Shown here piece by piece: positions 1,149 to 20,140 of a stretch of DNA of 32,000 bases (positions are counted from its first letter, which is position 1; each line of letters opens with the position of its first letter). Origin of the DNA: Desulfotalea psychrophila LSv54. Lineage in GTDB: Bacteria; Desulfobacterota; Desulfobulbia; Desulfobulbales; Desulfocapsaceae. A model generated the notes under the pieces. That model made no database searches, was not told where the DNA came from, and saw nothing but the letters and a program-made list of their open reading frames with translations. Both the position numbers and the translations under genes were made by a program. The stretch is from positions 1,350,001 to 1,382,000 of the forward strand of contig NC_006138.1 in the NCBI RefSeq assembly GCF_000025945.1, written 5' to 3'.

Positions 1149-1208
1149 GATTGAATGATGTACAGAGTGGTCAGGATGGTCTCGGGAATTATATCTACGG
1201 AGAGGGAT

Positions 1209-2669
1209 ATGGGTATTGTTGCAAATAGAGTTGTTCTTTTTGTCTTATTAAGCGTTGGCCTCTGTCTAAGCGGCTGTGTTACGGAGAAAGGCGGGTTCGG
1301 GCGGATCAATGATGGTCATCGTCCAGATACCTCCAGAGAGTCAGGCTTTTCCACCCTTTCTGAACTCACCGATATCTTTAGCCGTGATCTTGCCTCGCAG
1401 GTTCAGTCAAAAAAAATTTACCTTGATCGGGCAAAAATCAGAGATGTAAGTACAGGTGATGTTGCTAACTTCTCCTCCTATTTACAGAATGAACTTGAGG
1501 CGTCTTTGAGCAGAACATTTGACCTGCAGGTTGTCCCCGATGGAGCAGATTTGCTTCTTGGCGCAACTTTTCAGAGATACGGTGATCATATAAAAATATT
1601 TTTTAAATATCACTCCCCGGATTTTTCGGTGAATAAGAGTATTGATTATCATATTGAGCAATCAAGAATACCAAGGGATTCCCTGAAAGAGAATTTACAC
1701 TCAAAGGCAAAGCAGCTTGCGGCAAATATTATAGCTGACGATCTTGAGTATAAAATTTATGTAAAGCCCTTTGAATCATCAAGGTATGCATGTGTCTCTC
1801 CATTTTCCCGTATGTTTTCAACCTTGGTTAAAAGTCAAATAGTTCAGATTCACAGGCAGGTGGAAATCATTGATGATTGTCCTGTGAAGGGGAAATTATC
1901 ACACTTGAATAGTGCGGGCAAGAGGGGAAGAGGTGGTGCTGATGATCATTTTGCCGATGCCGATTCGGTGCTTGAGGGTGAATATGTTATCAATGGCGAT
2001 CAGGTTATGGTCACCCTTCTCCTTAAGAGTCTTGATGGGCATGTAATAAACAGTGCTCAGATTGATATTGCATCCTCTATCATCAAAATTCCGCTGGGTG
2101 ATCCGGCCTCGGAAAAACTGGCGGATCTTGCCGATCGCAAAAGTGAAAGGCAGGAGAGAACGGTTAAACGGGTGAAACTCTCCACGGGTAAGGGTGGGGA
2201 TTATCCTGTTTATTTTGAGGGTGAAAAAATTGTCTTCTATGGCCAGGTCAAGGAGCCACTCTTTCTCTATATATACGATATTACCAGCAGGGGTGATGTT
2301 GCCCTTCTCTATCCATATGGTTTCGGAATCGGGCAGAAAAAGGTGAATCCGGGTCGTTTAGTCTCCATCCCGGACGAGGAGGATGGGGTTGATCTCTATG
2401 TCGAGGCACCATTTGGCAAGGATGCTGTCAAGGTTTTCGCAAGTTCAATCGAACTGCCTCTGCCAACCCTCAGTGCTGCGGTGGAGTCGAAGAGTTATGC
2501 CCGGGGCGTACGGGCAATCGGTAAAAAGCGAAAAAGGGTTCAGGGAAGATTAGCGTCCAGGACAGAAATTAATCCCAGTGATCTGGTCGACTACTATCGG
2601 GGACTGGCCGAGCGGTTTGACATTAAAATTTATGAAGACAGCATTTTGCTGGAAACAAGATCAAGATAG
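1209..2669 (+). CDS. lipoprotein with two FlgO/LpoB-like modules and a C-terminal DUF4384-like domain
   Basis: Lies in ORF 1155-2669. The ATG at 1209 follows GGAGAGGG (1199-1206) and gives MGIVANRVVLFVLLSVGLCLSGC, a signal peptide plus lipobox. The C-terminal YPVYFEGEKIVFYGQVKEPLFLYIYDITSRGDVALLYPY...VSIPDEEDGVDLYVEAPFGKDAVKVFAS fits the DUF4384 pattern that usually accompanies bacterial caspase-domain genes. Confidence 0.7.
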   Translation: MGIVANRVVLFVLLSVGLCLSGCVTEKGGFGRINDGHRPDTSRESGFSTLSELTDIFSRDLASQVQSKKIYLDRAKIRDVSTGDVANFSSYLQNELEASLSRTFDLQVVPDGADLLLGATFQRYGDHIKIFFKYHSPDFSVNKSIDYHIEQSRIPRDSLKENLHSKAKQLAANIIADDLEYKIYVKPFESSRYACVSPFSRMFSTLVKSQIVQIHRQVEIIDDCPVKGKLSHLNSAGKRGRGGADDHFADADSVLEGEYVINGDQVMVTLLLKSLDGHVINSAQIDIASSIIKIPLGDPASEKLADLADRKSERQERTVKRVKLSTGKGGDYPVYFEGEKIVFYGQVKEPLFLYIYDITSRGDVALLYPYGFGIGQKKVNPGRLVSIPDEEDGVDLYVEAPFGKDAVKVFASSIELPLPTLSAAVESKSYARGVRAIGKKRKRVQGRLASRTEINPSDLVDYYRGLAERFDIKIYEDSILLETRSR

Positions 2670-2682
2670 GGGAAGAGGTGCC

Positions 2683-3357
2683 ATGCAGAGAAAACTTTTG
2701 CTTACAGCGGTCGTTAGTCTGATCTGGAGCATGCCCGCCCTTGCCGTAGGTCCTGCCTTTGTTGAAAGTGCAGATGAGATGGTTGAGCAGATGCTTGGTG
2801 GCAGAGAGAGTAGGCAGGCAGAGGGCTTTGTTGTAGGCGGGGAGGACAACAGTAGCCGGACAAGGGGCTTTGTGGTAGGCGGGGACCAGGGGCTAACCAG
2901 GTCTTTTACTGTGGTGGAACCCAAGACCCGTGCCATTAAGGTTCGGGCCAAAAAGGGGGGGCAGGAGCAGACCATTGTCGTTCAGGTGGGGATCGGTCTG
3001 GACCCGGCAGCAAGGCTTAAGGTTGAATTTGACCTGAATTCGGCGAGGCTTCGCCGCTCAGCATATCCACTTTTAGCAGAACTTGCCAGGGCCCTGGAGG
3101 ATGAGAGGGTGGTAGAGCACCAGGTCTGCATAAAGGGTCATACTGACAGCGCTGGTGCTGGCAGCTATAACTTGCAGCTCTCCTATAGCCGGGCAAATGC
3201 CGTGAGAGACTATCTGGCCGGTGCGGGCATGTCTGTCGATAAACTTGAGGTCTTCGGTTATGGCGAGAATATGCCGCTTGTCACCAATAGCAGTGAGGCT
3301 AACAGGCAGCTCAATCGCAGAGTTGAGGTGTCGCTTAACTGTCCAGAAATAAATTAG
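2683..3357 (+). CDS. OmpA-family (OmpA/MotB/Pal-type) peptidoglycan-binding protein, exported
   Basis: The ATG at 2683 follows GGAAGAGG and gives the signal peptide MQRKLLLTAVVSLIWSMPALA. The C-terminal ~110 aa carry OmpA_C-like motifs (FDLNSARL...GHTDSAGAGSYNLQLSYSRANAVRDYL...FGYGENMPL...NRRVEV). A short internal direct repeat GFVVGG(E/D) occurs twice. The 2578-2682 part of the ORF overlaps the previous gene and is not used. Confidence 0.85.
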   Translation: MQRKLLLTAVVSLIWSMPALAVGPAFVESADEMVEQMLGGRESRQAEGFVVGGEDNSSRTRGFVVGGDQGLTRSFTVVEPKTRAIKVRAKKGGQEQTIVVQVGIGLDPAARLKVEFDLNSARLRRSAYPLLAELARALEDERVVEHQVCIKGHTDSAGAGSYNLQLSYSRANAVRDYLAGAGMSVDKLEVFGYGENMPLVTNSSEANRQLNRRVEVSLNCPEIN

Positions 3358-3397: not shown

Positions 3398-4339
3398 GTG
3401 AGTGGAAATATGCTGAAGAGTCTCTGTCTCCTTGTGACAATATTTTTCTGTTCTGTCGCTCTACCTGGACTTGCCGCAGAGAGGGTGGCTCTGGTGATTG
3501 GTAATGGTGCCTATAAAGATGCACCGCTGACAAATCCCGTAAACGATGCAGATGATATGGTGGCCCTGTTAAAAGGTTTGGGCTTTAAGGTTATTAAGGT
3601 GATCAATGCCGATAAGCGGGAGATGCTTACGGCCCTGGGTAAATTTTCTCGGGAGTTGCCGTCATCGGAAATAGGCCTCTTTTATTTTGCCGGGCATGAC
3701 ATACAGATCAACACTCGCAACTATCTGCTGCCTGTCGTAACAACCCCTGTAAACGCGGTTCTTGCAGTGCAGGCCAGGGCTTTGCCCAGATGGATGCACC
3801 CAAGGCTACCATTATTGCCTATGCAACGGGTCCCGGTTCAGTGGCAGCAGACGGGGCCGGCAGAAACGGTCTCTTTACCAAGCATCTGCTCTCCGCCTTT
3901 AAGGCTCCCGGTCTTGATATCCAAAGGATCTTTAACAGGGCGGGGATGGGGGTAATGGAGGAAACTGCCGAGAGACAGATTCCTTCGACCTCCAATATCC
4001 CGATTCCGGATTACTCCCTGACAGCTCAGTCCCTCCCCCCCTGACTACCCTTGATCCTGAAGAGAAACTTTGGCTTGCCGTCAGAAAGCTTGGCGATCTT
4101 GCCGCCTTTGCAACTTATCTGGCCGAGTATCCCTCTGGCAGGTTTGTAAGGGTTGTGAAACTACAGATAAAATGCTCAAGAAGGAGGTTGTTGCCACAGG
4201 CGATTCCTTTGGCGGTGGTCATTGTTATGAGAGGCCTGTGCATGAAGTCTGTGTAGATGGTTTTTCCCTGGCAGAAAAATTTAATCGGTCGGTCTCTGCA
4301 GGTAAAAGATGTCAAATCTATTGCGCCACTGTTACTTAG
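3398..4339 (+). pseudogene. disrupted caspase-like (peptidase C14) gene with remnant of a C-terminal FGE/SUMF1-type domain
   Basis: Frame A (3398-) encodes a signal/TM segment plus the start of a caspase domain: RVALVIGNGAYKDAPLTNPVNDADDM...LFYFAGHDIQINTRNYLLP. The catalytic-Cys motif ACRNNP and the rest (MDAPKATIIAYATGPGSVAADGAGRNGLFTKHLL...) sit in frame B (open 3700-4044). About 40 aa normally found between these blocks are absent. After a C7 run (4035-4041) a third frame encodes EEKLWLAVRKLGDLAAFATYLAEYPSGRF. A fourth piece (frame of 4070-4339) has ERPVHEVCVDGF, which is typical of the start of an FGE-sulfatase domain, and then stops. Confidence 0.7.
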
Positions 4340-4486: not shown

Positions 4487-5215
4487 ATGGAAAAGAAAGA
4501 TCAGGACATGATAGTTGGTGTTGCCAGGAAGCTGTATCACAATTATGTGGCTGGTAGCGCGTCTGAGGTTGGGATCAGCGTGGAAGATTTGATTCAAACA
4601 GGCATAATCGGTTATCTGGAAGCTAAGAGTCGGCTTGATAAAGAAAAAGGTGATGGCAAGGCATTTATTTTTATGCGGATGAAGGGCAACCAGCTGTCGT
4701 TGATACGCAGGCAGGCACTTGTTCGCATGCCCCAGAAAACATACGCAAAGGTAAAAGAACTGCTGGCAGTAAGAAAGCAGCTTGAGGCAAGCTGTGTGGA
4801 GGCAACGGATCAGTTACTTGCCGAGAGACTTGGCTGGACAGTAAAGGAAATACATCAACTACTGGCCTCCGTACCTCGGGTCTTTTCCTCCGATGATGTC
4901 ACCGACAATGAGGAGAGCAGTGATTTTTATGAGAGCCATTTTCTGCCGGGGCAAAACCCACAACCCCTCATTAGTGAAATGGAAAAAAAAGAAATTGCTG
5001 ATCTCATCCAAGGCTGTTTAGCGCGACTGGAGAATCCGCGGCAACGCTTGATTTTAGTGGCGAAATATTTTGAAGGCATAAACGTTAAAAAACTTGCAGA
5101 TCGATTTGGTTGCTCTAGGTACTTTGTTGAATCTGAGGAGCAAAAGGGTCTTGGCCAGATGCAGACCTGCCTTGAAAAAAGTGGCTGGCAATGGGACGGG
5201 GCAGAAATCGATTAG
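4487..5215 (+). CDS. sigma-70 family RNA polymerase sigma factor, FliA/sigma-28-like (regions 2, 3 and 4)
   Basis: 242 aa. Region 2-like: ISVEDLIQTGIIGYLEAKSRLDKEKGDGKAFIFMRMKGNQLSLIRR. Region 3-like: PQKTYAKVKELLAVRKQLE...ATDQLLAERLGWTVKEIHQLL. Region 4-like: LENPRQRLILVAKYFEGINVKKLADRFGCS. It is preceded by a very AT-rich 150-nt region (4340-4486). Confidence 0.75.
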   Translation: MEKKDQDMIVGVARKLYHNYVAGSASEVGISVEDLIQTGIIGYLEAKSRLDKEKGDGKAFIFMRMKGNQLSLIRRQALVRMPQKTYAKVKELLAVRKQLEASCVEATDQLLAERLGWTVKEIHQLLASVPRVFSSDDVTDNEESSDFYESHFLPGQNPQPLISEMEKKEIADLIQGCLARLENPRQRLILVAKYFEGINVKKLADRFGCSRYFVESEEQKGLGQMQTCLEKSGWQWDGAEID

Positions 5216-5234: not shown

Positions 5235-5801
5235 ATGGAAAAATTTCCCAAGATGGATTTGCGACAGGGAATGGAAATATGGAAGGAGCAGGCCCAGTCT
5301 CAGGCGGATGCAACTCATCTGTCAGAGGAGGAGTTGGCCCGGGCCGCAGTTCATGGAGGCTTGGCTGAGCTTGATGGATATCTCATTGAGCATTTGGCAT
5401 CCTGTCCTGTCTGTTTGGCAAAATGGGTTGCTGCCTGCAGAGATATCGATATGAGCAAAGATGAGTTTGCCTATGATACTGCAGACGACTGGTATAGTGG
5501 TGGCCTGCTTGAGGCTGCTGCCACGTCAGGGAGCAGATTACCTGCAGTGCTTCTCAGCAGGTGTGGTAATTTTAATCTACGGATTTTTCCGGATGAAAAG
5601 AGTACTGGGGCGATGGTGGCTCTTGAGACTCGTAACCCTTCAGCAACAGGACGCAGCGAGGGTAAAATGGTCACCGTTCAGGATGCTGAGGGTAAAATTA
5701 TTGTCGAAGGTAAAATTATTTCTGGCCGGTTTGCCCGAATGGTTGATAATCTCGATGGTTTTAATTTACAGGTCTGGTCATTAATGATCAAGCAGGGGTA
5801 A
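5235..5801 (+). CDS. putative anti-sigma factor (zinc-binding HxxxCxxC motif), no obvious TM segment
   Basis: The ATG at 5235 follows GGAGG (5226-5230) and lies 20 nt after the sigma gene stop. The motif is EHLASCPVCLAKW (H-x3-C-x2-C, ZAS-type). Its position immediately downstream of a sigma gene is typical of anti-sigma factors. The 5094-5234 part of the ORF overlaps the sigma gene. Confidence 0.55.
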   Translation: MEKFPKMDLRQGMEIWKEQAQSQADATHLSEEELARAAVHGGLAELDGYLIEHLASCPVCLAKWVAACRDIDMSKDEFAYDTADDWYSGGLLEAAATSGSRLPAVLLSRCGNFNLRIFPDEKSTGAMVALETRNPSATGRSEGKMVTVQDAEGKIIVEGKIISGRFARMVDNLDGFNLQVWSLMIKQG

Positions 5802-5805
5802 TGCA

Positions 5806-6663
5806 TTGGGAACGGTAAAAAAATGTACTCATTTGGAACCATCTTCTCTTCTTTTTCCCTTTGCAAGTGGTAATCTTGCAGAAATTGAGCTCTCCTTTTA
5901 TGTCAACTCCGGTAAGAGGGATGGACGTCCTATTACTACCTACCCGCTTGATAATGTTAGTCCGGATCTGGATCAGAGCGTCAGGTATGCCGCTGAAGTT
6001 GCCTATCGCCTTGCCCTTCAATCATCTAAGCTTGGGGAGATCTCTTATGCTGCCGGTTATAGGCTGAAAAACATGGAGGGAGAGACCTCGTTGACTGGGG
6101 AAAGCGCTGGTCTTGCCATGGCCTTGGCTCTTTATAGTGAGCTGACCTCTATACATCTGGGCAGGGTTGTTGCAACTGGAGCCTTAACAGGATTAGGAGA
6201 CGGTGGTACTGTCTCCTGGGTGGGTGAGGTGCCCGCAAAACTTCTTGGCGCTCTGGATGGTCTTGAGAGCGGTGATAGCATGTTCTACCCGCTTGCCAAC
6301 GTCTCCCAGGTTACCGATGTCCTTAAAAAAAAGTATGTGGAGAGAGGAATCAGATTAATTGCTGTTGGCAGTGTAGAGGAGGCTCTAAATTATTTTCCGA
6401 GTCTTTCTTGCCCGTCACAGGAGCTGGTGAAAAAGAGCAGGTGTGTTCCTGCCCTAGCTATTATTTTGCTGGTTGGGATGCTACTGGTGGGTGGCTATGT
6501 GTTGGGTGAGCATGATAACGACCTTGCTGAAGGGAATGTGATCATAGAGGAATCTTCTGTTGACAAGGTTAGGGGGAGGATAAAATCTTTTGAAGCTTAT
6601 AATGATCAGGGCGATAAACCTGCTCCGTCAGCGCAAAAAGATAATTCTTTCGGTTTTGAATAG
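5806..6663 (+). CDS. membrane-anchored Lon-type (S16) Ser-Lys protease domain protein without AAA+ module
   Basis: TTG start 5 nt after the anti-sigma stop; the next in-frame ATG is at codon 89. LTGESAGLAMALALYSELT...VATGALTG...GTVSWVGEVPAKLLGALDG aligns by eye to the E. coli Lon proteolytic domain (GPSAGIAM...[25 protein letters not shown]), with the catalytic Ser and Lys in place. A single TM follows (CVPALAIILLVGMLLVGGYVLG), then a ~50-aa acidic tail ending FGFE. Confidence 0.7.
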   Translation: MGTVKKCTHLEPSSLLFPFASGNLAEIELSFYVNSGKRDGRPITTYPLDNVSPDLDQSVRYAAEVAYRLALQSSKLGEISYAAGYRLKNMEGETSLTGESAGLAMALALYSELTSIHLGRVVATGALTGLGDGGTVSWVGEVPAKLLGALDGLESGDSMFYPLANVSQVTDVLKKKYVERGIRLIAVGSVEEALNYFPSLSCPSQELVKKSRCVPALAIILLVGMLLVGGYVLGEHDNDLAEGNVIIEESSVDKVRGRIKSFEAYNDQGDKPAPSAQKDNSFGFE

Positions 6664-6680
6664 GGCGGCTGGTGCAAAAT

Positions 6681-6707
6681 CCCCTCGTTCTCATAGAGAA
6701 TAAGGGG
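6681..6707. terminator. hairpin between convergent genes (possible bidirectional terminator)
   Basis: CCCCTCGTTCTC-ATA-GAGAATAAGGGG forms a 12-position stem with one mismatch and one G-U pair. It is flanked by AAAAT on the left and CTTTA on the right, and lies between the stops at 6663 (+) and 6728 (-). Confidence 0.45.
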
Positions 6708-6727
6708 CTTTATGTATAAGAGTTGAT

Positions 6728-7786
6728 TTATTCAAATGTCCCGGACATCTCCAGATCTCTTACCAACTCCCGGTCGAGGACGAACTGAACTTCTCGACTG
6801 GTGGCATCACCGGGGCGCACACCCTTGAGCATATCAATCTCTGCCTGGGTGTAGCGATATGGCACACCCTTCATTACGATCTCACCACCGTTTGCGCTGA
6901 TGTCGTTGAGCATCTTCATGATGTTGGCCTGCAGGACAAATGGATCGGTACCGCTGATATTTACCCGCCAGCTAACGTAGGATGCCTGAGGGTTATCGGG
7001 CACAATACGCTGACCATAGTTCTTGGCGTAATTAACGCCATTGGCCGTTTTGAGTACCTTGCCAAATACCTCGACGATGGCATATTCGGTTACACCATCA
7101 AGTTTAATGCTTAGATATTGCTCGTGTTGCTTGAAATTTCTGGCAAGGGCGCCGCCAGTTGCCGGGGCGGTATGAACCGCCGGTCTTACCACTCTCCTGT
7201 TTGATCTGTGACCATTCCAGGCGGTGAGTTTACGGCCAACCAGATCGCCAACCTCTTTTTCAACCTCGGCAATTGCGTCATCACAATCACGGCGGGTTAC
7301 CTTAAAGGTTTTTGACATGCCAACTCCAAGGTCATGGCCTGCAGAGTCATATCCCTCACCGTCAAGTCGGGCGGATGCCTTGCAATAGCCATCACTGGTT
7401 TTCCTTACCTTAACCTTCAGCCAACTGATATAGGCTGCATCTGTGGCGTATTTTCTACATACCTCAAGGCTGGCAAGGGCAGAGTCCTCATGGCTACGCT
7501 CCATGACCCGGTTATACTCACGTTCTGATGCATCACCTGCAAAGGGGTTTACAACTTCAAAGTTATGGCGTACCAGTTGGTTATTGATAAAACGCATCAT
7601 TCTGCGATAATGAAGTGTTGAACTGCCACCATCGTTTGCATCGTCACCTGCCTCAACATAGAAGGGCAGGACTACAATTCTGATTGGCTCGCTGTTGGCG
7701 CTGGCTACGGTAAAGGTCAACAGGGTTAACATTGTTGCTAACATGGCTGCCGCTACTGCTCTTACTGCTTTTTTTTTCGTTGTCAT
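6728..7786 (-). CDS. exported hypothetical protein (FlgO/LpoB/CsgG-N-like N-terminal module), C-terminus GTFE
   Basis: 352 aa. Signal peptide MTTKKKAVRAVAAAMLATMLTLLTFTVASA. IRIVVLPFYVE... is typical of periplasmic alpha/beta tether modules. RBS GGAGAG upstream (reverse complement of ctctcc at 7791-7796). Confidence 0.7.
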   Translation of the reverse strand: MTTKKKAVRAVAAAMLATMLTLLTFTVASANSEPIRIVVLPFYVEAGDDANDGGSSTLHYRRMMRFINNQLVRHNFEVVNPFAGDASEREYNRVMERSHEDSALASLEVCRKYATDAAYISWLKVKVRKTSDGYCKASARLDGEGYDSAGHDLGVGMSKTFKVTRRDCDDAIAEVEKEVGDLVGRKLTAWNGHRSNRRVVRPAVHTAPATGGALARNFKQHEQYLSIKLDGVTEYAIVEVFGKVLKTANGVNYAKNYGQRIVPDNPQASYVSWRVNISGTDPFVLQANIMKMLNDISANGGEIVMKGVPYRYTQAEIDMLKGVRPGDATSREVQFVLDRELVRDLEMSGTFE

Positions 7787-8044
7787 TATCTCTCCTGAAT
7801 AATTAAATGCCTTTTTTCCTTGAGTTGCAATCCTTATCCTCTGTTAATGTGGCTTGCCCGACCCTGTTCTCTCCAGTGTCCTTTAGCTCCGAATAATATA
7901 GACCTGTGCCCCTCTTTACAGGGATCTCCTAACCATTGCCAGAGAGCTCTTTACAGCTATAAGTGGGGTTCTGTTTAATATATCGTTCTTTCTATCAGGT
8001 CAAGTTTGTTTGTTAAATTATATAGTTCGAGCTATAATCTGCCT

Positions 8045-8173
8045 CTCCACGCTTAATCCACCCTGCCCTATCGAAGAAGAAGATATTTATGCAAAAAACA
8101 AATTCAGTTTTTTGCATAAAAAATGGACTATTGCCACCGCCTCCAGATCAGGGGCAAAGTGCCGGTGGCTTTT
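8045..8173 (+). ncRNA. candidate small RNA (promoter-like TTGTTA-17-TATAAT to GC hairpin + T4); speculative
   Basis: -35 TTGTTA (8010-8015), exactly 17 nt of spacer, -10 TATAAT (8033-8038). Internal 14-bp AT-rich hairpin at 8086-8120. GCCACCG (8133-8139) pairs with CGGTGGC (8163-8169) and is followed by TTTT (8170-8173). It lies in a 412-nt non-coding gap, antisense to the flanking genes. Confidence 0.2.
8086..8120. repeat. perfect 14-bp inverted repeat with 7-nt spacer
   Basis: TTTATGCAAAAAAC-AAATTCA-GTTTTTTGCATAAA, read directly from the sequence. Confidence 0.6.
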
Positions 8174-8198
8174 GGGGGAGCATGTCGCTGGCTAGTCT

Positions 8199-9449
8199 CT
8201 ACTCAAAACCACGATTAAAGGTGACCTGAAGGCTATCGTCTGTAACAGGGGTGAAGCTATAGTTATATATGCCCTCACTGTTCATTTCATTTGCCAGCCA
8301 TGAGATCAGCTCATCCATTTGCCATAGGCTCTTTTGTCTGAGGGAAAGGCTGTAGCAGACAGATGATCTTGAGCCTGTGGTGGATTGGTCGTAACGCCGC
8401 CTTATGTCGGTCAGTCCCGGCAATCCCTTCAGTACGGGATAGATCTTTTGCGCAAAATTGTCTCTGTAGTGATAAAAGCAGATCTGATATCCATCCCCTG
8501 TCTCAGAGCGAGAGGCTTGCTCAGCTCTCTCCCAGCCGGCAACAGTCTCCAGAGACACATATGCCTCGGTTTCTCTGCCGGGGACAAATATACCATTTTC
8601 CTTATACTTGGATGTTAGCCACACCTGATAAAGTCCACCATAAATCTGATGCGCCTTAATGTGGATACGGATATTGGCCTGTCTGGGATTATCTGTGACA
8701 GTTACCTCTCTATATCGTGCCAGGTAGTTTTTCAGTATCCCGAAAGAGTTTTTGAAATAGGGGCTATTGTCGGGGGAGTCCTGTTCTACATAGACAATAG
8801 TCTCATCGCTTTCCATATTGGCAAAAAGGCAACTGAGGTTTTTTGCGAGATAGGCAGCCAGCAGATCGCCCTGCCTTTTATTAAAGGGAAGGGGACGCAG
8901 ACCGAGGAGAAATTCATCCGCTGAGCTTTGCAGAAGAGCCCTCTGCTGTCCACGGCTTAGTCTGCCACGCCAGGAGAGACCAAAGCCTGTGACCCATGAT
9001 TTCGCCTTGATATCAAGGGCTCTGATATTTACCTTGAACACGCCATCGACAGAGGTTCTTGAGATATCAATACCCACATAATATTTTTCTCTCTGGCTTG
9101 CATTACACTCTACATCTTCAAGACTGGTGTGATGTTTGGGGGCTGCGGCAGATGGCCTCCAGACCAGGCCTATGCCCTGCTTTCTGAGCAGTCCATCTAT
9201 GATATCTTCACGTAGCTGGATGGTGAGGGCATCAATTTCTGTCTCTATATTATCCCGATCCATGGAGACGATTAAAAACGGTTCACCCTTAAATCTCGGG
9301 TTATCCCCCAGCTCATGAACGAGGTAGGGGATGGCTTGTTGGTCCAGCCACTCTTCAAGGGTGTGCTGTTGTGCCTGTATGCCACCTGTTCTGGCACAGC
9401 CGGAGAGGTAGATGCCGGCAAATAGAATAAACAGAAGGGTACGTTTCAT
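8199..9449 (-). CDS. lipoprotein with two FlgO/LpoB-like modules, C-terminus RGFE
   Basis: 416 aa. MKRTLLFILFAGIYLSGC is a signal peptide plus lipobox. Module signatures include EPFLIVSMDRDN...LTIQLREDIIDGLL and ANIRIHIKAHQIYGGLYQVWLTSKY. It lies 30 nt downstream of the SLT gene. Confidence 0.75.
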   Translation of the reverse strand: MKRTLLFILFAGIYLSGCARTGGIQAQQHTLEEWLDQQAIPYLVHELGDNPRFKGEPFLIVSMDRDNIETEIDALTIQLREDIIDGLLRKQGIGLVWRPSAAAPKHHTSLEDVECNASQREKYYVGIDISRTSVDGVFKVNIRALDIKAKSWVTGFGLSWRGRLSRGQQRALLQSSADEFLLGLRPLPFNKRQGDLLAAYLAKNLSCLFANMESDETIVYVEQDSPDNSPYFKNSFGILKNYLARYREVTVTDNPRQANIRIHIKAHQIYGGLYQVWLTSKYKENGIFVPGRETEAYVSLETVAGWERAEQASRSETGDGYQICFYHYRDNFAQKIYPVLKGLPGLTDIRRRYDQSTTGSRSSVCYSLSLRQKSLWQMDELISWLANEMNSEGIYNYSFTPVTDDSLQVTFNRGFE

Positions 9450-9479
9450 TGTTTTGTTCCTTATTAGTCTTCTTATCCG

Positions 9480-10349
9480 TCACATGAACTTCTTGTTAGG
9501 GTCTAGGTAATATCCAAGTTTTGCCATTTTTGCCAGACTGCTCTTCTTCTCCTCTTCTGTATTGAAGAGAAGAACCACAAAACTTTCACCTAACCTGTTT
9601 CTGAACCAGTCAAGCTGTACTTCCGGGGCGCGGGTGTAGAAGTAATCAATAAATTTTTCTGCAAGAAATGGATCATGAAAGAGAAGTACCGGGATTTTAT
9701 GTTTTGCGATGTACTTAGGTCTTCTTCTGGGCTTAGGTAGTCTCTTGCCTGCCTGGGCCACCATATACTGTTCGGAGATGATGCCTCTGCCCGATATATC
9801 CAGAACAGTTTTGAGATGATGGTAGATATAGCCGCTGTACCAGTTTGCTCCCTCCGGGATATTTCTGCTCTTTTGTTTAATACGACCGGGCCCGTAATTG
9901 TAGGCGGCCAGGGCCAGGTGAATATTCCCCCTGTACCGGTCCAGCATCATCCTTATATATCTTGCCCCGGCCATTATATTCCTGCATGGATCATAGAGCT
10001 GGGCAAGAGAGGTAAACCCCAGATCTTTAGCCGTTCCCGGCCAGTGAATCTGCATGATGCCGTAACAGGCGGCAGATGATTTGGCCCGTGGGTTGAAATC
10101 TGATTCGCCTTTGGCTATGGAGAGGAGGAGGGTGACAGGTATGTCGTATCGTTTGGCCGCCTTTTCAAAGCAGATCTGGTAGGGAAAGCTCTTGGCAGGC
10201 GACAGCTTAATCGCCCGTTTCTGGTAGTTTTGCCATGCGCAGTTATAGTCAAGTTTTTGGATCGTCTGTCTTGCCTTTCCTTCACCTTGAAAGAGGACCG
10301 TCCATACGAATATGGCAAAACAGATGGTAAAGATAAGTTTTATTTTCAT
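9480..10349 (-). CDS. lytic transglycosylase (SLT domain) with C-terminal SPOR-like domain
   Basis: Signal peptide MKIKLIFTICFAIFVWTVLFQG. SLT motifs: AKGESDFNPRAKSSAACYGIMQI (catalytic Glu-Ser) and LALAAYNYGPGRI. The C-terminal ~70 aa (IPVLLFHDPFLAEKFIDYF...FVVLLFNTEEEKKSSLAKMAKLGYY) have a beta-alpha-beta-beta-alpha-beta, SPOR-like pattern. Confidence 0.85.
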   Translation of the reverse strand: MKIKLIFTICFAIFVWTVLFQGEGKARQTIQKLDYNCAWQNYQKRAIKLSPAKSFPYQICFEKAAKRYDIPVTLLLSIAKGESDFNPRAKSSAACYGIMQIHWPGTAKDLGFTSLAQLYDPCRNIMAGARYIRMMLDRYRGNIHLALAAYNYGPGRIKQKSRNIPEGANWYSGYIYHHLKTVLDISGRGIISEQYMVAQAGKRLPKPRRRPKYIAKHKIPVLLFHDPFLAEKFIDYFYTRAPEVQLDWFRNRLGESFVVLLFNTEEEKKSSLAKMAKLGYYLDPNKKFM

Positions 10350-10362
10350 GGCGGCCTTGCCT

Positions 10363-11304
10363 CTACTCCAGGGTTATTTGGTTGTCAGCATGAATTGTTA
10401 TATCGCCACCCTTGCCTTTGCCCATCAGCTCCGTAAGCTGTCTGTGGATGCCAGGAGATAAATGTACTCCGTATGTAACAGCACCCTGCTTGAAGGCAGC
10501 TACGGAACGCCTGCCTGCGCGAATAACAGAGCCTGGGACAGTACTCTGATTTATTTCGTATATTTGTTGTGGTGGGGCCGAGGGAATAAAGCTGAGTTTT
10601 CCGCCCCTGCTCACCTGGAGCTTCCAGCTTTTTGTCTTGGCAAGCATAAAGAGCTCTACCTGTCCCCCCTGACCTACCATTTGCAGCAGGGTATTGTTTG
10701 AGGCGAAACCCAGGGTGAATCCCTTCTTTCTATCTGGTGCAGGCCTTGCCTCAGCGACTCTATGCTGCTTTTTAGCCTCTGCTATTTTTCCTTGAAGTAC
10801 CCGTAACTCTTTTTCTGTGAGCTGTTTTTTTATGAGGTATTGATTCTTGCCGGTCTCTGCTTTCCTCTGTAATTCGTTAAGGGCCCCTTGCTGAGTAAGA
10901 AAAGCCTCTGTCTGCAGCCTCTCCTCTGCCTGCATCCCAGCAAGATTGTCCTGCAGGATCTGCTCCCGTTCTTCCAGCTTTTCTATCTTGGCAGCCAGAG
11001 TTTCAAGCTCTTTAATGCCCCTCTGTAGTTTTTGTTTTTTTGTCTGGATCTCTGATTCAAAGAGAGCTGCCCGGCGAATGAGCTGAGCCAGCTGCTCTTT
11101 TAAGTCCTCAACCTCTTGCGGGCTCGTTTTCGTTTCTAATTCAGGGCGACTATTTTGGGGCTGAAGAGGTATTGCTTGAACCAGCGCGAAAATGACCATT
11201 AAACACATGCAGATAATGGCGAAAAAACGCATAACATCTGTTTGCAGGGTCTCTGTCTCATCACTTCCCTGATTATGGCGAAAGCGTGCGGTACCTGTCC
11301 TCAT
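10363..11304 (-). CDS. single-pass membrane protein: ExbD/TolR/MotB-type Asp-bearing TM + ~130-aa coiled coil + C-terminal globular domain
   Basis: 313 aa. The start overlaps the upstream stop (ATGA at 11301-11304). TLQTDVMRFFAIICMCLMVIFALV resembles E. coli ExbD TPFIDVMLVLLIIFMV and MotB YADFMTAMMAFFLV, with Asp23 at the cytoplasmic edge of the TM. Residues ~60-190 are heptad-rich in E/K/Q/L. Confidence 0.55.
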   Translation of the reverse strand: MRTGTARFRHNQGSDETETLQTDVMRFFAIICMCLMVIFALVQAIPLQPQNSRPELETKTSPQEVEDLKEQLAQLIRRAALFESEIQTKKQKLQRGIKELETLAAKIEKLEEREQILQDNLAGMQAEERLQTEAFLTQQGALNELQRKAETGKNQYLIKKQLTEKELRVLQGKIAEAKKQHRVAEARPAPDRKKGFTLGFASNNTLLQMVGQGGQVELFMLAKTKSWKLQVSRGGKLSFIPSAPPQQIYEINQSTVPGSVIRAGRRSVAAFKQGAVTYGVHLSPGIHRQLTELMGKGKGGDITIHADNQITLE

Positions 11305-11945
11305 GTTGTTCCCCGCTCATCTTTGAGAAGAGAGGCAATATTGTCAAGTTTTGCTATGATTTCCAGGTGTTCAGAGAGCTGTTGGCCAATTGCAAATTTA
11401 TAGAGTTTACTGCCCAGCATCCATGCCTTTATCATGCGCATCAGGTATCCACCGATGCCGCCAACAATTGTCGTTGACAGTGAGAGGAGGATGCCTCCAT
11501 CAATAAGTTCTTTAAGTATACTGAAGGCCCCTTTTTGGGCAGCGGTATCTGCATCCAGGCTGCCCAGCGAAACAAGAAGTGCGTTGCGCATGCCGATTGC
11601 AGTCCAGATGACACCGATGCCGAAGAAAAGGGTGATAAGGAGATCAATCTTTTCTTCAAGTGGATATATCTTTTCGGGGGATGTGGCTGTGCTATCAAGA
11701 GCCCTCTGCAGGCGAAAAAGATATAAGATGTAGAGGCAGGCTATCAGGGCAAAGGGGATAATCGAGAATCCTAAGTTGTCGTGGCACCAGTATAGAACGG
11801 GGATGAGGCTGAGGCTGTTTGTTGAGCTGATTGCCACTGTTCCCGATATGTTGAGAATATAGATAAGGGCTGCAACTGAAATTACGCCTAACATCATGCC
11901 GGCGAGATAGCTGCCGGCGTTTTGTTTCATTGTTTTGTTTTTCAT
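11301..11945 (-). CDS. MotA/TolQ/ExbB proton-channel family protein
   Basis: Lies in ORF 11301-11984. The ATG at 11945 avoids overlap with the upstream gene (stop at 11960). The start is uncertain; 11930 is also possible. Multi-TM. LFFGIGVIWTAIGMRNAL...LIDGGILLSLSTTIVGGIGGYLMRMI matches the conserved GTVxGM...GIxxALxTTxxGL core of the family. Confidence 0.65.
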   Translation of the reverse strand: MKNKTMKQNAGSYLAGMMLGVISVAALIYILNISGTVAISSTNSLSLIPVLYWCHDNLGFSIIPFALIACLYILYLFRLQRALDSTATSPEKIYPLEEKIDLLITLFFGIGVIWTAIGMRNALLVSLGSLDADTAAQKGAFSILKELIDGGILLSLSTTIVGGIGGYLMRMIKAWMLGSKLYKFAIGQQLSEHLEIIAKLDNIASLLKDERGTT

Positions 11946-11959
11946 AGCTCTAGCCCGTT

Positions 11960-12523
11960 TTATTCGGCCTGACACGCATCGCATGCGGCTTCCATGATGA
12001 GGTCAAGCTTGGTGAGGTCGTCGCTGGCCTTTGCATAGGTAACCTTGTCATTTGCTGCCCCGACCAGACCTCTTTCTTTGTCGGCAAGTTCTGCCTGCCA
12101 GTCACCTCGAAGGGACTTGAGATTTGAGCAGTAACTGCATGTCTGGTAGTCATCGGGCAGGGATATAAACCTGTGCGAGAAGTAGCGGGTGTAGTATTCT
12201 TTTGCCTGTATCTTGCTGATTATACCCTGGCTTTTTGCCCAGACGAGCAGCTTGCTGAACTTCTCTTTGTTTGCTTCTGTCGGATCTCCTTCGCTGATAT
12301 CCAGGAGGGTTTTGAAAATTGTCTCAAACTGATAGCTGCACTCCCGGTTTGCAAGTGTTTGCCGGGCCGTTGCAAAGGCAGGGTCCAGCAGGTAACCTGA
12401 GGGGAGCTGGCAAACTGGCTCTGGCACTGAATTCGTGTGAGTGGTGGATGCACATCCTGTGGTGATGGTGGCCATGGTTGCCGCTACTACAAAAACTTTT
12501 ATTCCGTTAATTATTTTTTTCAT
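11960..12523 (-). CDS. Cys-rich lipoprotein, unknown function, C-terminus CQAE
   Basis: 187 aa. MKKIINGIKVFVVAATMATITTGC is a signal peptide plus lipobox. The mature part has seven further Cys, including CSYC and CDAC pairs. Confidence 0.7.
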   Translation of the reverse strand: MKKIINGIKVFVVAATMATITTGCASTTHTNSVPEPVCQLPSGYLLDPAFATARQTLANRECSYQFETIFKTLLDISEGDPTEANKEKFSKLLVWAKSQGIISKIQAKEYYTRYFSHRFISLPDDYQTCSYCSNLKSLRGDWQAELADKERGLVGAANDKVTYAKASDDLTKLDLIMEAACDACQAE

Positions 12524-12556
12524 CTCTTTTTCTCCTATTCAATGATTTTGTCTTGT

Positions 12557-13345
12557 CTATTCCATTTCAAGAGGGCTTTGGAAACCACCCTGCTCACTGC
12601 TGCCAATAACGGGGAGTGAGCCTTCCTCCTCAATTTCACCAAAAACAACTGCCTTAACAGCGCTGACCGTGCTGAGCATTTCCGGGGTTAAGGTGCCATA
12701 CATCTGGCCAATGCGGTGCATGGTTTCCTGTTGGACGATTTCAGCTTCCATGATGTCAATCATATTGAGGACCGCCCCGCTATCAAGGTAGATTTCTGAG
12801 GCGAGTGAGGCGAGGTTGGTGTTGCCGCCGCGACTGATCATACTGTGATACTGAGCAAATCTGGTTGAGAGTGAATAGCGGCCCTTGTAAACCTTTGGCT
12901 TGGTAGTATTGCTGAGCAGGCGCTGAATACCGGCAGGTGTGGTCTTTTTGCCGATCTCTTTTCTCAGGTTTTTCTCAATCCCCTTATTTGTTGCAGAAAT
13001 GGACTGTTTGATCTCAGGAAGGTTCTCCTTCATGATAGAGAGCATCTCCATATAGCTGTCTCCCATCTGTTTTGATATTTCCAGACATCCGGGGTCACTT
13101 GAGCCTTCACAGCCGGTTTCCTGGTAGAGGCGTTGTTGCGTTTCGAGTTTGCCGATGGTGGCTTTAAGGCTGCTTTCCATGTTGCCGGCCACCTCGCCTG
13201 TATGGCTTAACTGTTCTGTTACATCTGTGGGGAAGAGGTTCAAAACAGGTTTTGAGTTTGCCGCCTGAGCATTCATGGCTGGAAGGGCAGCTCCGAAAAG
13301 AAAAATAAAGGCGGTGGCTGTAGCTATTTTTTTTCTGATTTTCAT
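12557..13345 (-). CDS. exported, predominantly helical hypothetical protein, C-terminus LEME
   Basis: Lies in ORF 12557-13384. The ATG at 13345 follows AAGGAG and gives MKIRKKIATATAFIFLFGAALPAMNAQA (signal peptide). I recognise no family. Confidence 0.7.
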   Translation of the reverse strand: MKIRKKIATATAFIFLFGAALPAMNAQAANSKPVLNLFPTDVTEQLSHTGEVAGNMESSLKATIGKLETQQRLYQETGCEGSSDPGCLEISKQMGDSYMEMLSIMKENLPEIKQSISATNKGIEKNLRKEIGKKTTPAGIQRLLSNTTKPKVYKGRYSLSTRFAQYHSMISRGGNTNLASLASEIYLDSGAVLNMIDIMEAEIVQQETMHRIGQMYGTLTPEMLSTVSAVKAVVFGEIEEEGSLPVIGSSEQGGFQSPLEME

Positions 13346-13370
13346 TTGTGGTCTCCTTTGAGAGGTCGGT

Positions 13371-13955
13371 TTATAGAGAGACACCTGTCTCTTTTATAAG
13401 TTCAATACTGTTAGCTTTTTCTGCTTCGCTGGAATAGTTGAAGTAAACCTGATATGTTCCAGGCCCTGTTTTTTCAGCAAGACATTCGATACCGCTATTT
13501 TTTGTTATGTATGCGGCAAATCTATCGGCCTTGTTCATCAGTGAGAATGGTTTCCAGAAAAAATGTTTTTCGCCTGCTACATCATCAACGATTATCACCT
13601 CATCTACCGGCATGGTGATTGGCGTAGCCAGGATGCTAAGGGCAGGCTCTGGCGTGATCAGTTCGGGCTCTGCCGTGATCAGTTCGGGCTCTGCCGTGAT
13701 CAGTTCGAACCTCTGGCGTGATCTGTTCGCGCCTGTCACTTTCAGCCTCTGGCCAGGCACAATCATCCCTATTCTGCTCAGCCAGGGGAGTGATGCCTGA
13801 TTCTCCTCCGCTAATAACATCAATCCCCTCCGGAGACGGCGCGCCTCTGCTATTTCCCTTCCCTTATTGATGATCAGCTCTGCAAGTTGGGGGTGGGATT
13901 GCCACAAAAGTAAACTGACAAATCCACCGACAATAAAACCGATTATAACTTTCAT
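13371..13955 (-). CDS. single-pass membrane protein with ELITxEP tandem repeats and C-terminal SPOR-like domain
   Basis: Lies in ORF 13371-13967. The ATG at 13955 follows GGAGA and gives MKVIIGFIVGGFVSLLLW (TM). The alternative start is 13967. The C-terminal FFWKPFSLMNKADRFAAYITKNSGIECLAEKTGPGTYQVYFNYSSEAEKANSIELIKETG fits the SPOR pattern. This is the first gene of the minus-strand block. Confidence 0.7.
   Translation of the reverse strand: MKVIIGFIVGGFVSLLLWQSHPQLAELIINKGREIAEARRLRRGLMLLAEENQASLPWLSRIGMIVPGQRLKVTGANRSRQRFELITAEPELITAEPELITPEPALSILATPITMPVDEVIIVDDVAGEKHFFWKPFSLMNKADRFAAYITKNSGIECLAEKTGPGTYQVYFNYSSEAEKANSIELIKETGVSL
13645..13707 (-). repeat. 3 x 21-bp in-frame tandem repeat inside the CDS
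   Basis: The plus-strand unit is GGCTCTG(G/C)CGTGATCAGTTCG at 13645-13665, 13666-13686 and 13687-13707. It encodes ELIT(A/P)EP three times. A degenerate fourth copy lies at 13709-13729. Confidence 0.9.
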
Positions 13956-14202
13956 ATATTTCTCCATAATTGTTTAGCATTATCAGCTTTCTCAAGAGAG
14001 GTATCGTTGATTATTTTCGTTTTTCAAAAAACAAAATATTTTTTGAGAAAAGGGGGCGCTCCACCCTCTGTCTCAGCGAGGTGCATGAGTTGTTTCTGTA
14101 TCGTGAAGCAGGGTGGAGGGGGGCCTTGGTATTATACCAATATAACTGTTAATTTGCTTGGATGAACGAAGGGGAGAGCGGCCTGCTCAGGCGGGGGCAA
14201 CG

Positions 14203-15083: not shown

Positions 15084-16799
15084 CTAGTTGCCGGCCATCA
15101 TGTCAGCAATATCACTCTCGGCGGTGCCGATGGGCTTGATGTTGAAGTTATCTACCAGCACCTTGAGTACCGCTGGCGAAATAAAGGCGGGCAGGCTCGG
15201 TCCGAGACGGATACCCTTAACTCCCAAATGCAGGAGGGCCAGGAGTACTGCCACCGCCTTCTGCTCGTACCAGCCGATATCAAAGGAGATGGGGAGCTCG
15301 TTGATATCTTCGAGCTGGAACACTTCCTTAAGTTTGAGGGCGATAACTGCCAGGGAGTAGGAGTCATTGCATTGACCGGCATCGAGTACCCGCGGGATGC
15401 CGCCGATATCACCGAGGTTCAGCTTGTTGTAGCGATACTTTGCGCAACCGGCGGTGAGAATGACCGTGTCCTTAGGAAGTTTCTCAGCAACTTCGGTGAA
15501 GTAGCCGCGTCCCTTTTGGCGGCCATCACAGCCTGCCATGACCACAAATCTTTTGATAGCCCCGGATTTTACCGCTTCAACCACCTTGTCGGCCAGGGCT
15601 ATTACCTGATTATGGGCAAAGCCGCCAACGATGGTGCCTGTTTCAATTTCCTCAGGTGCACTGCAGCCCTTGGCCTGTTTGATAATGGCGGAAAAATCCT
15701 TTGCCTTGCCCATTACCCTGTCGGCAATATGAGATACTCCCGGATAACCGGCCATACCGGTGGTGTAGATGCGGTTTTTGTAAGAGTTGCTCTCCCTGAT
15801 GGGTACGATACAGTTGGTGGTCATTAGGATCGGGCCGTTGAAGCTCTCGAAATCCTTATTTTGATGCCACCATGAGCTACCATAGTTGCCCTTAAGGTTT
15901 TCGTATTTCTTGAATGTGGGATAGTAATGGGCGGGAAGCATCTCGCCATGGGTGTAAACATCAATCCCCGTTCCCTGGGTCTGGATCATTAACTCCTCGA
16001 GATCTTTAAGATCATGTCCACTGATCAGAATGGCTGCCTTGTCACTGCCCCCGATGTTTACCTCGCTTATCTCAGGATGACCATAGCTCGTGGTATTGGC
16101 TGTATCCAGTGCTGCCATGGTGGTGACAGCGCATTCGCCGGCCCTGAGGACAAGGCTTACCATTTCATCAACGGAATGATCTTCCGTGGTGGAGGCCATG
16201 CCTTCAATGACAAAGTCATAGATCTCTTCTTTTTCCACCCCGAGCACGGCCGCATGCTCGGCATAGGCACCAATACCCTTTAGGCCAAGAATAAGCAGTT
16301 CGCGTAGAGATCTGACATCTTCGTTTTCTGTGGCCAGCACTCCGACGGTCTTGGCCTTCTCTTGAAACATGGCAGGATCGCTGGCAAACCATAGGGCAGA
16401 ACCGTCCAGCTGGTCTGATGCTAATGCCTTGTCGTCGGAGCCGAGGAAGTTCATAAGTGTCTTCCAGATAGAGGCCTGCTCGCTAGCAGAGCCAAGACCA
16501 TCTAACTCTGTTTTTAGACCCTGCTTAATGGCCTGGGAGCGCTTGATCCATCCCTCCAGGCTGGCGTTGTCAAAGTTGGCATTGGTGATGGTGGTAAAAA
16601 GCCCCTGAGAGATGAATAATCCGACGCTTTTATCAACCTTTACACCTGCATTTTTGAGGCCCTTTGCCAAGACGGCAATACCCTTGAGATCGTAGATGAG
16701 CAGATCCTGAAGGTTGGCCGTTGTCTCTTGTTTTCCACAAACACCCTTGACTGTGCATCCTGTACCTTTAGCGGTTTCTTGACATTGAAAACAGAACAT
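15084..16799 (-). CDS. hcp: hybrid cluster protein (hydroxylamine/NO reductase), copy 1
   Basis: 571 aa. The N-terminal [23 protein letters not shown] has the Cys-x2-Cys-x8-Cys-x5-Cys cluster motif. Conserved blocks are [41 protein letters not shown] and WYEQKAV. Confidence 0.95.
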
Positions 16800-16963: not shown

Positions 16964-17189
16964 TTTTTGTGAGGAGAAGGTGCTTTTCTCTTTAGGTTTT
17001 TTTTATGCTCCTCTTTTCTGAAGCTTGACCTGCAAAAAAAAATAGATGGCAAAGCACTTATGTCAGGCTAACCTTAATGCCTTGATTTGCTAAAGCTCAA
17101 TCGTATAGGATTAATGGAGCTTTATGATATGAATCTTTCGTTATAATTTGTCCTGGGGATTCTCAGGAAATGAAATTAAGGGGGTATCT

Positions 17190-20111: not shown

Positions 20112-20140
20112 CCCCAGTTTTGTTGAGAGAGGAGAGGGGG

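Follow-up and report, generated by a model that had tools for sequence, protein, structure and literature searches.

Why do several unrelated envelope proteins, encoded side by side in one bacterial genome, finish with nearly the same residues? The question is raised by a 32,000-nucleotide stretch of the Desulfotalea psychrophila LSv54 genome (contig NC_006138.1, positions 1,350,001 to 1,382,000 of the forward strand; hereafter the window). A preliminary description, made from the sequence alone, had noted that six of nine consecutive proteins of an envelope gene island end in Glu, three of them in Phe-Glu, and had proposed a C-terminal recognition tag. We find that an ending of the form GF[DE] at the free C-terminus is real and not a product of chance, since it is kept in orthologues and, well beyond these, in hundreds of distant relatives. 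GF[DE]-COOH is most likely a short linear motif under purifying selection, to judge from its pattern of conservation, and functional only as the last three residues. The reading we prefer, to which we give a probability of about one half, is that the ending docks its carriers onto a periplasmic partner common to them, in an undescribed envelope complex, with signalling that may run through the tail of a Lon-like protease.

An envelope gene island with acidic C-termini

We re-read all nine open reading frames (ORFs) and their C-termini from the translations. As claimed, six proteins end in Glu, and the three exceptions are the lytic transglycosylase, the 227-residue protein with several transmembrane segments and the 198-residue protein. 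The nine genes are as follows.

5806-6663, plus strand: membrane-anchored Lon-like (S16) protease, 285 residues, C-terminus ...FGFE as read from the translation; GFE-COOH codons at 6652-6660 (plus strand), stop at 6661-6663
6728-7786, minus strand: 352-residue exported protein with a predicted FlgT-like fold, C-terminus ...GTFE; TFE-COOH codons at 6731-6739 (minus strand), stop at 6728-6730
8199-9449, minus strand: 416-residue lipoprotein, C-terminus ...RGFE; GFE-COOH codons at 8202-8210 (minus strand), stop at 8199-8201
9480-10349, minus strand: lytic transglycosylase with an SLT domain (Pfam SLT, E=1.5e-27) and a C-terminal extension, ends KKFM
10363-11304, minus strand: 313-residue protein with one N-terminal transmembrane segment, a coiled coil and a conserved C-terminal domain, ends ...ITLE (VxLE)
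11301-11984, minus strand: 227-residue polytopic inner-membrane protein with 3-4 transmembrane segments, ends ...RGTT, C-terminus variable
11960-12523, minus strand: 187-residue Cys-rich lipoprotein, ends ...CQAE (CxACxxE)
12557-13384, minus strand: 275-residue exported helical-bundle protein, ends ...LEME, likely ATG start at 13345
13371-13967, minus strand: 198-residue protein with an N-terminal transmembrane segment and a C-terminal alpha/beta domain, ends ...GVSL

Glu ends are rare outside the island, as had been said, occurring in one of 18 other ORFs in the window (a Na/H exchanger ending ...EVEEE; the number of other proteins had been put at about 17). The six acidic termini had also been placed in the periplasm, and the lipoboxes (LSGC and TTGC among the island lipoproteins), signal-peptide-like N-termini and transmembrane positions agree with that placement, on a heuristic view of topology. 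For the envelope proteins of the cluster, functional annotation by sequence is limited to the SLT domain and the Lon protease domain.

The ending is conserved and strictly terminal

As a background we used 106 flanking ORFs from the window and from related loci, with exported and cytoplasmic proteins pooled. Their last residue is Glu in 7.5% and Asp or Glu in 11.3%; the last two residues are hydrophobic and then acidic in 4.7%, and [FY][DE] in about 1%. Against these frequencies the binomial probability that at least six of nine island proteins end in Glu is 1.3e-5, and that at least three of the remaining six do so, once the three GF[DE]-type ends are set aside, is 7e-3. The probability of at least three [FY][DE] ends among nine is 7e-5, which bears out the earlier impression that a triple Phe-Glu ending is unlikely by chance. 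Elsewhere in the window no stop-delimited segment of at least 40 residues ends in F[DE], and one spurious segment of 45 residues ends in YE. All three probabilities are post hoc, and we therefore take conservation as the decisive evidence.

Fifteen syntenic loci (L001-L015), from Desulfobacter, Desulfocicer and metagenomes, keep the gene order of the island; three more distant clusters (L016, L018 and L019) come from Desulfosarcina ovata and others. Scans of genomes and metagenomes gave three and eight loci, respectively, and most other context came from contigs that carry homologues. Conservation of the terminal residues in orthologues had been named as the check on the proposed tag, and the signature is kept there. 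Across the families of the Lon-like protease, the 352-residue protein and the 416-residue lipoprotein, GF[DE] is found exactly at the terminus 187 times and never displaced from it by 1-10 residues. This strictly terminal placement indicates that it is a free C-terminus that is recognized. In the last position of the motif Asp and Glu are equally common.

The carriers are not homologous to one another. BLAST comparison among the island proteins found no mutual similarity; hhalign gave a probability of 0.5% for the lipoprotein profile against the 352-residue profile, and the idea that a domain shared by these two proteins is the source of the ending was rejected on that result. Hidden Markov models (HMMs) of the lipoprotein, the 352-residue protein and other island families found no matches in the tails of the Lon-like proteins, which likewise disposed of the idea that those tails are degenerate copies of other island domains. 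The common ending, therefore, was not inherited from a single domain. No Pfam or NCBIfam model covers the tagged regions.

The distant clusters encode two to four proteins each that end in GF[DE] or NFE, except L019, with one. The GF[DE] ends in L016 are ...ERGFD and ...SKGFD; L018 has ...DQGFE, ...GGFD, ...ENFE and ...RRGFE; the single such end in L019 is ...AGFE.

Three families that carry GF[DE]

The 285-residue protease matches Pfam family Lon_C with E=1.7e-5 and 24.9 bits (cut-off 21.1), and the profile of its family matches Lon proteolytic domains in the PDB with E=2.4e-14. Both residues of the Ser-Lys dyad, S100 and K145, are invariant in the family. The protease domain is the sole match by Pfam and NCBIfam, with none to the AAA+ module of canonical LonA and LonB. 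There is no signal peptide, and a single transmembrane segment lies at residues 210-236 with its more basic side preceding it. This arrangement is consistent with a cytoplasmic protease domain and a periplasmic tail of about 50 residues ending in GFE. The protease was also considered as the reader of the tag and rejected, since the catalytic domain faces the cytoplasm.

In a sample of 150 representatives of this family, mutually less than 50% identical, GF[DE] is the ending in 86, and 105 end in Asp or Glu. Relative entropy is 0.15-0.6 bits at positions -3 to -9 and rises to 1.6-2.4 bits over the three final positions (0 to -2). The tail between the transmembrane segment (at about residues 200-230) and the motif is anywhere from 26 to 298 residues long, is rich in Pro, Ala, Glu, Ser and Thr, and cannot be aligned. 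Orthologues from the syntenic loci, 24-34% identical in the protease domain and otherwise dissimilar in the tail, end in KGFE, NGFE, RGFD and KIFD. The lengths of GF[DE]-form tails are bimodal, with modes at about 45-100 and about 140-200 residues (P0231-P0380). The longer tails may hold an undetected periplasmic domain; a Pfam scan of three long-tailed members with the motif (P0234, P0236 and P0258) gave no significant match. Ten of the representatives are recorded solely as "hypothetical protein".

The 352-residue protein has 341 homologues, of which the best 120 were used for the counts given here. The last residue is Glu in 83 and Asp in 12, position -1 is Phe in 89, and position -2 is Gly in 73; 72 of the 120 end in GF[DE] and 90 in [FY][DE]. 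A variable linker rich in Lys and Arg precedes the motif in the family (...HDPYKARxxxxGFE), and the ends in the syntenic loci are AGFE, PGYE, RSFE and RNFE. The D. psychrophila copy has lost this basic linker (HDPYKAR..., about 15-20 residues), so that TFE follows almost directly upon the last helix. In a model of the protein from AlphaFold2 (AF2), with a predicted local distance difference test score (pLDDT) of 77, the tail is unpacked and its pLDDT is below 50. The N-terminal domain of the model has a TolB-N/CsgG/LptE-type fold. The best structural matches by Foldseek are FlgT (3w1e; E=2.5e-6, probability 1.0, TM-score 0.32, identity 10%) and a chain of the LPHT ring of Vibrio (8z5n), at TM-scores that are low throughout (0.28-0.32). 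The C-terminal half recurs in L019 as a separate protein of 198 residues.

In the lipoprotein family, 29 of 32 full-length homologues finish with GF[DE], as do 10 of the 12 complete termini from the syntenic loci, where the exceptions are GFN and GFQ. The motif closes a C-terminal module of about 100 residues that ends ...[IV]xFxxGF[DE]. This module is found elsewhere as a standalone lipoprotein of 134 residues (L018) and fused to other N-termini (L016 and L019). Counting these relocated modules together with the relocated C-terminal half of the 352-residue protein, three of four end in GF[DE]; the fourth, a 487-residue fusion in L019, ends in ...GGFK.

The tag alternates with a DUF4384 domain

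Two of these families occur in a second form. A set of lipoproteins (P0036-P0057) aligns with the N-terminal part of the island lipoprotein, about 300 residues (hhalign probability 100%, residues 1-307 only), and then continues into a DUF4384 region ending ...W[RQ]xIxF[WR]H.. or ...FWHD.., with no GF[DE] module. In the Lon-like family the periplasmic part is likewise of two kinds: some members have a tail with GF[DE] at its end, others a DUF4384 domain with an ending similar to that of the lipoproteins, ...FxFxH. (P0356, P0373, P0344, P0353 and P0368). Neither the Lon-like protein nor the 416-residue lipoprotein of the window has a Pfam match to DUF4384 (PF14326), and a separate DUF4384 lipoprotein is encoded near islands of the GF[DE] type, in the window (1155-2669), in L016 and in L017. 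By the logic of domain fusion, DUF4384 could be the partner on which the tag docks, or else a substitute adaptor for that partner. Searches of PDB sequences with the DUF4384 protein and with the lipoprotein profile returned no matches. The family has been noted as a frequent fusion partner of proteases, and a DUF4384 domain sometimes forms the C-terminal domain (CTD) of Csx30, which is the substrate of a protease in another system linked to a sigma factor (bioRxiv 10.1101/2022.08.17.504292).

The other acidic ends and the untagged island proteins

The preliminary description had treated all six Glu ends as one signature. What stands is GF[DE] on three proteins; the other three acidic ends are specific to their families. 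The 313-residue protein ends in xLE in all eight orthologues and in the metagenomic locus L022. The 187-residue lipoprotein keeps its terminal Glu, within CxACxxE, in six of six orthologues and in L022, and its distant homologues end in ...CSSCR and ...CTACAANR. The 275-residue protein ends in SPLEMD in five of five syntenic orthologues; its family ends GGFxSPLEM[DE] after an acidic linker, with Asp or Glu terminal in 23 of 31. The AF2 model of this protein is a long helical bundle followed by a disordered acidic tail (residues 252-275, pLDDT below 50). No fold match to it was significant, and since ClyA, Hbl and MakE-like bundles were matched only at E-values of at least 0.04, a reading of it as a pore-forming toxin was rejected.

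Homologues of these three proteins no longer end in an acidic residue in L020 and L021, which are clusters of the DUF4384 type. They still do so in L022, a closer relative in which the lipoprotein ends ...VFHE. This is suggestive of acidic ends that co-vary with the choice between GF[DE] and DUF4384, as read from few and more divergent loci. The LE, AE and M[DE] ends might use the same reader as GF[DE].

Among the untagged proteins, the lytic transglycosylase has no acidic end (codons at 9480-9491, minus strand) and keeps a penultimate Phe, as F[QKNM], in 13 of 13 orthologues from L001-L015. Orthologues of the 198-residue protein end in Phe, and the ends of 227-residue orthologues vary. Residues 88-108 of the 198-residue protein (about 13644-13706, minus strand), in the linker that joins its N-terminal transmembrane segment to its C-terminal domain, form a perfect or near-perfect tandem repeat of seven residues, ELITAEP, in three copies.

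Three labels given earlier to island proteins find no support in sequence searches. The 227-residue protein, called ExbB-like, has no match in Pfam, NCBIfam or PDB sequences; its positional counterparts in L016, L018 and L019 score 14-20 bits against MotA_ExbB, short of the 22.9 required, and HMM comparison ties them only weakly to the 227-residue family (E=0.03-0.08). The 313-residue protein, called ExbD-like, matches none of ExbD, TolR, MotB or TonB, and its PDB search was empty or gave coiled-coil noise. The 198-residue protein (13371-13967), called a SPOR protein, has no Pfam or NCBIfam match and resembles that domain by eye only.

A linked sigma factor and putative anti-sigma factor

The island had been drawn too small. 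Five neighbouring genes on the plus strand belong with it.

1155-2669, plus strand: DUF4384 lipoprotein, 504 residues (Pfam DUF4384, E=2.5e-18)
2578-3357, plus strand: OmpA-family protein with a peptidoglycan-binding domain (Pfam OmpA, E=2.6e-19)
3398-3955 and 3790-4044, plus strand: caspase-like (Peptidase_C14) gene in two overlapping frames, between the OmpA-like and sigma factor genes
4487-5215, plus strand: sigma-70-family factor, closest to FliA (group 3)
5235-5801, plus strand: putative cytoplasmic anti-sigma factor with an HxxxCxxC motif and no transmembrane segment, by position and motif

Synteny of the sigma factor and Lon-like genes is seen in L001, L003, L008, L013 and L018, and orthologues of the putative anti-sigma factor lie between the two in four loci. 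The HxxxCxxC protein has no hydrophobic segment. A homologue of the OmpA-like protein is also present in L020. The split in the caspase-like gene (3398-4044) probably reflects either an error of sequencing or a frameshift that left a pseudogene.

A proposed docking peptide and its rivals

The preliminary description had listed a docking peptide among the possible roles of the tag, and it fits best. Only the last three residues are conserved, they are strictly terminal, they end flexible linkers of varied length, and their carriers are unrelated proteins of one cluster; for these reasons we favour docking. The Phe side chain and the terminal carboxylates would insert into a pocket of the common periplasmic partner, and docking would tether together the FlgT-like protein, the 416-residue lipoprotein, small accessory proteins of related clusters and the periplasmic tail of the Lon-like protease. 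Docking of the Lon tail, or its competition with the tails of unassembled subunits, might set the clustering and activity of the protease, and the clustered protease might cleave the putative anti-sigma factor and so adjust expression of the envelope operon. We infer this control by cleavage from the cytoplasmic catalytic domain, the sigma and HxxxCxxC genes that always adjoin the protease gene, and the precedent of CalpL, discussed below.

A fuller version makes GF[DE]-COOH the address label of a trans-envelope signalling device that reads the assembly or integrity of an envelope machine and tunes a sigma regulon. The Lon tail, as a tether of 45-300 residues, would dock on an outer ring-like assembly of the FlgT-like protein, the lipoprotein and possibly the DUF4384 protein; structural subunits bearing the same label would compete for the pocket, and its occupancy would set the oligomeric state of the cytoplasmic protease. 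We offer this version tentatively, as possible and on the unlikely side.

Several observations weigh against a docking peptide with signalling through the Lon tail. As a candidate reader, no PDZ, TPR or other domain that binds C-terminal peptides was found in the island by Pfam or NCBIfam. About 40% of the Lon-family representatives and about a quarter of the 352-residue homologues are without the tag, and it must be dispensable in some systems. In the lipoprotein the motif comes straight after a beta-strand that belongs to a folded module, where its contacts could be intramolecular. The trio of sigma, putative anti-sigma and Lon-like genes is not adjacent to the core module in L012, L020, L021 and L022; the HxxxCxxC protein, which we assign as an anti-sigma factor from position and motif only, has no Pfam match; and signalling by a disordered tail through a single transmembrane segment is speculative.

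Other explanations of the ending may be considered. The tail might bind the neighbouring copy of the same protein, by ring closure or strand exchange, with the Lon tail as a mimic. This self-assembly would suit a 352-residue protein whose model resembles the ring-forming FlgT and the LPHT ring, with a CsgG/TolB-N-type fold, and whose tail is unpacked on its own chain, and it would suit the occurrence of the lipoprotein C-terminal module and the 352-residue C-terminal half as standalone proteins ending in GF[DE]; the structural matches behind the ring analogy have TM-scores of only 0.28-0.32, however, and we think it unlikely. Alternatively, an enzyme or transporter rather than a structural partner might read the tag as a sorting or processing signal, whether for removal of the acidic residue to expose -GF-COOH, in the manner of an outer-membrane protein or stress signal, for covalent attachment, or for delivery to the cell surface or outer membrane. 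The tag is common to unrelated proteins of a single system, as are LPXTG, PEP-CTERM, GlyGly-CTERM and the tags of the type IX secretion system (T9SS); the placement is strictly terminal, the lytic transglycosylase keeps its penultimate Phe, and genes for S1 proteases (in related islands), a caspase-like protein and the transglycosylase itself are nearby. The tag, however, comes with no transmembrane helix or basic cluster, no sorting enzyme family was detected among the window proteins by Pfam or NCBIfam, the trypsin-like gene is absent from the window, the periplasm has no ATP for ligation of a carboxylate, and one of the carriers sits in the inner membrane, with a tail that cannot be cargo for export. 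A role in sorting or processing is doubtful on this balance. Ligation of the C-terminal Glu in the manner of Pup or UBact was rejected outright, being cytoplasmic and ATP-dependent where the tails are periplasmic.

Two further explanations need no common partner. Degradation by Tsp/Prc is promoted by non-polar C-termini and blocked by charged ones, and an acidic end could be a protective cap, or anti-degron, that shields periplasmic tails from proteases of the Prc/CtpA type or others that read C-termini and favour small or non-polar ones; the common ending would then reflect a common hazard. All six acidic island termini are predicted to be periplasmic, several lie on disordered tails, Asp and Glu are interchangeable, and trypsin-like S1 proteases adjoin related islands. 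A cap leaves unexplained, however, the conservation of Gly at -2 and Phe at -1, which equals that of the acid, and the alternation of the tag with a DUF4384 domain. The flanking ORFs, exported and cytoplasmic pooled, show no such bias (Asp plus Glu, 11%), and the lytic transglycosylase and the 198-residue protein, from the same operon, have conserved hydrophobic ends. We consider a protective cap decidedly unlikely. It is also conceivable that there is no common function at all, each end being kept for structural reasons of its own and the clustering being coincidence plus post hoc selection. The statistics are indeed post hoc, VxLE (the end of a folded domain), CxACxxE and SPLEM[DE] lie in family-specific motifs, and these three ends are lost in L020 and L021. 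Yet GF[DE] ends unalignable linkers in two unrelated families and a domain in a third, is never near the end without being at it, and recurs on further proteins of related clusters, while even the other three ends keep a probability of 7e-3 under the background. Coincidence is thus untenable for GF[DE], and may plausibly be all that connects the LE, AE and M[DE] ends with that motif; as an account of the whole it is very improbable.

Comparison with known C-terminal signals

It had been stated that no sorting signal of this form was described, and literature searches indeed found neither the motif nor the cluster. No equivalent was found in the literature, Pfam or NCBIfam, and the ending is most likely a docking tag not described before. 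An analogy had been suggested with recognition of the YxF ends of outer-membrane proteins by DegS. The two share a periplasmic free C-terminus containing an aromatic residue and a genetic tie to a protease and a sigma/anti-sigma pair. The analogy fails in its particulars: the last residue here is Asp or Glu and Phe is penultimate, no PDZ-containing periplasmic protease is found among the window proteins (the trypsin-like proteases of related islands match Trypsin or Trypsin_2 only), the protease is of the Lon type with a cytoplasmic catalytic domain and carries the tag rather than reads it, and the putative anti-sigma factor does not span the membrane.

The gene order of Lon-like protease, small anti-sigma-like protein and sigma factor resembles the three-gene module CalpL-CalpT-CalpS (SAVED-Lon protease, anti-sigma factor and a sigma factor resembling those of extracytoplasmic function), in which the Lon-domain protease cleaves the adjacent anti-sigma factor upon oligomerisation of its sensor domain (bioRxiv 10.1101/2024.05.08.593097). 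By analogy, a similar cleavage may occur here. In place of the SAVED sensor, the Lon-like protease has a transmembrane helix and a GF[DE] tail (or a DUF4384 domain); it gave no match to a SAVED domain or cyclic-nucleotide sensor, and no sequence match of its family to CalpL was seen.

Sortase with LPXTG, exosortase with PEP-CTERM, rhombosortase with GlyGly-CTERM and the T9SS CTD all provide precedents for a C-terminal signature on unrelated proteins within one gene system. Unlike those tags, GF[DE] is just three residues long and closes the chain; it comes without a transmembrane helix, basic cluster or folded CTD, and a Pfam and NCBIfam search confined to the window proteins found no cognate sorting enzyme. 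The EEVD-COOH ends bound by TPR carboxylate clamps of Hsp70/Hsp90 co-chaperones are similar in their acidic last residue, their disordered tail and their need for a free carboxylate. That system is eukaryotic and cytosolic, whereas here Phe precedes the acid and the island encodes no TPR protein.

FlgT, of the Vibrio flagellar H-ring, is closest to the predicted fold of the 352-residue protein, and genes for a FliA-like sigma factor, an SLT protein and an OmpA-like protein are nearby. However, no flagellar genes are present in the window, the 352-residue protein has no FlgT match in Pfam or NCBIfam, and the TM-score is about 0.3; to our knowledge a GF[DE] tail is not a described feature of FlgT.

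Compared by features, GF[DE] works like the DegS-YxF, TPR-EEVD and sorting signals, yet lacks what defines each of them. We read it as a C-terminal recognition motif on an undescribed envelope system with a Lon/anti-sigma/sigma module.

Further observations in the window and related loci

Clusters of the Desulfosarcina type contain a pair of adjacent genes whose products have characteristic ends of another kind. Proteins of 237-238 residues end in ...VGAL, ...TGAL or ...AGAI, and proteins of 419-494 residues end in ...AGVL or ...AGVLK. Judged by these sequences, systems of this kind may have another C-terminal signature, formed by the paired ...GAL/...AGVL ends. The gene pairs, with the shorter protein first, are:

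L016, 2665-3381 and 3383-4642
L018, 4404-5117 and 5119-6603
L019, 2299-3015 and 3017-4357

A secreted protease of the Trypsin/Trypsin_2 type, without a PDZ domain, adjoins four related islands; the window has none. Its genes are:

L013, 1397-2230
L014, 5945-6820
L016, 11331-12236
L017, 11243-12073

In L022 the seven-gene core module is flanked by genes of a CRISPR-Cas system, Cas1, Cas_APE2256 and RAMP (11403-11825 and 19076-21410), probably by coincidence.

From 14.3 to 32 kb the window holds housekeeping genes unrelated to the island. A divergent pair of genes for Prismane (hybrid-cluster) proteins lies at 15084-16799 (minus strand) and 17148-18857 (plus strand), followed by an MsrA-MsrB fusion at 19011-20111 and, at 24809-27148, a bifunctional glutamate-cysteine ligase/ATP-grasp gene. 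These make up a redox-stress neighbourhood with no relation to the tag.

What the tag may mean

Tags at the C-terminus that unite unrelated proteins have repeatedly opened the way to new machinery; sortases, exosortases, the T9SS and DegS signalling are examples. The three-residue tag described here connects a cluster of envelope genes, found to date mostly in Desulfobacterota, with genes for a Lon-like protease, a sigma factor and its putative anti-sigma factor. It offers an experimental handle, both as a peptide bait for the reader and as a point where altering one residue could disable the system. If the Lon tail does report on periplasmic assembly, it would represent a new mode of signalling across the inner membrane, and the protease/anti-sigma/sigma logic of the CRISPR-associated CalpL would be generalised.

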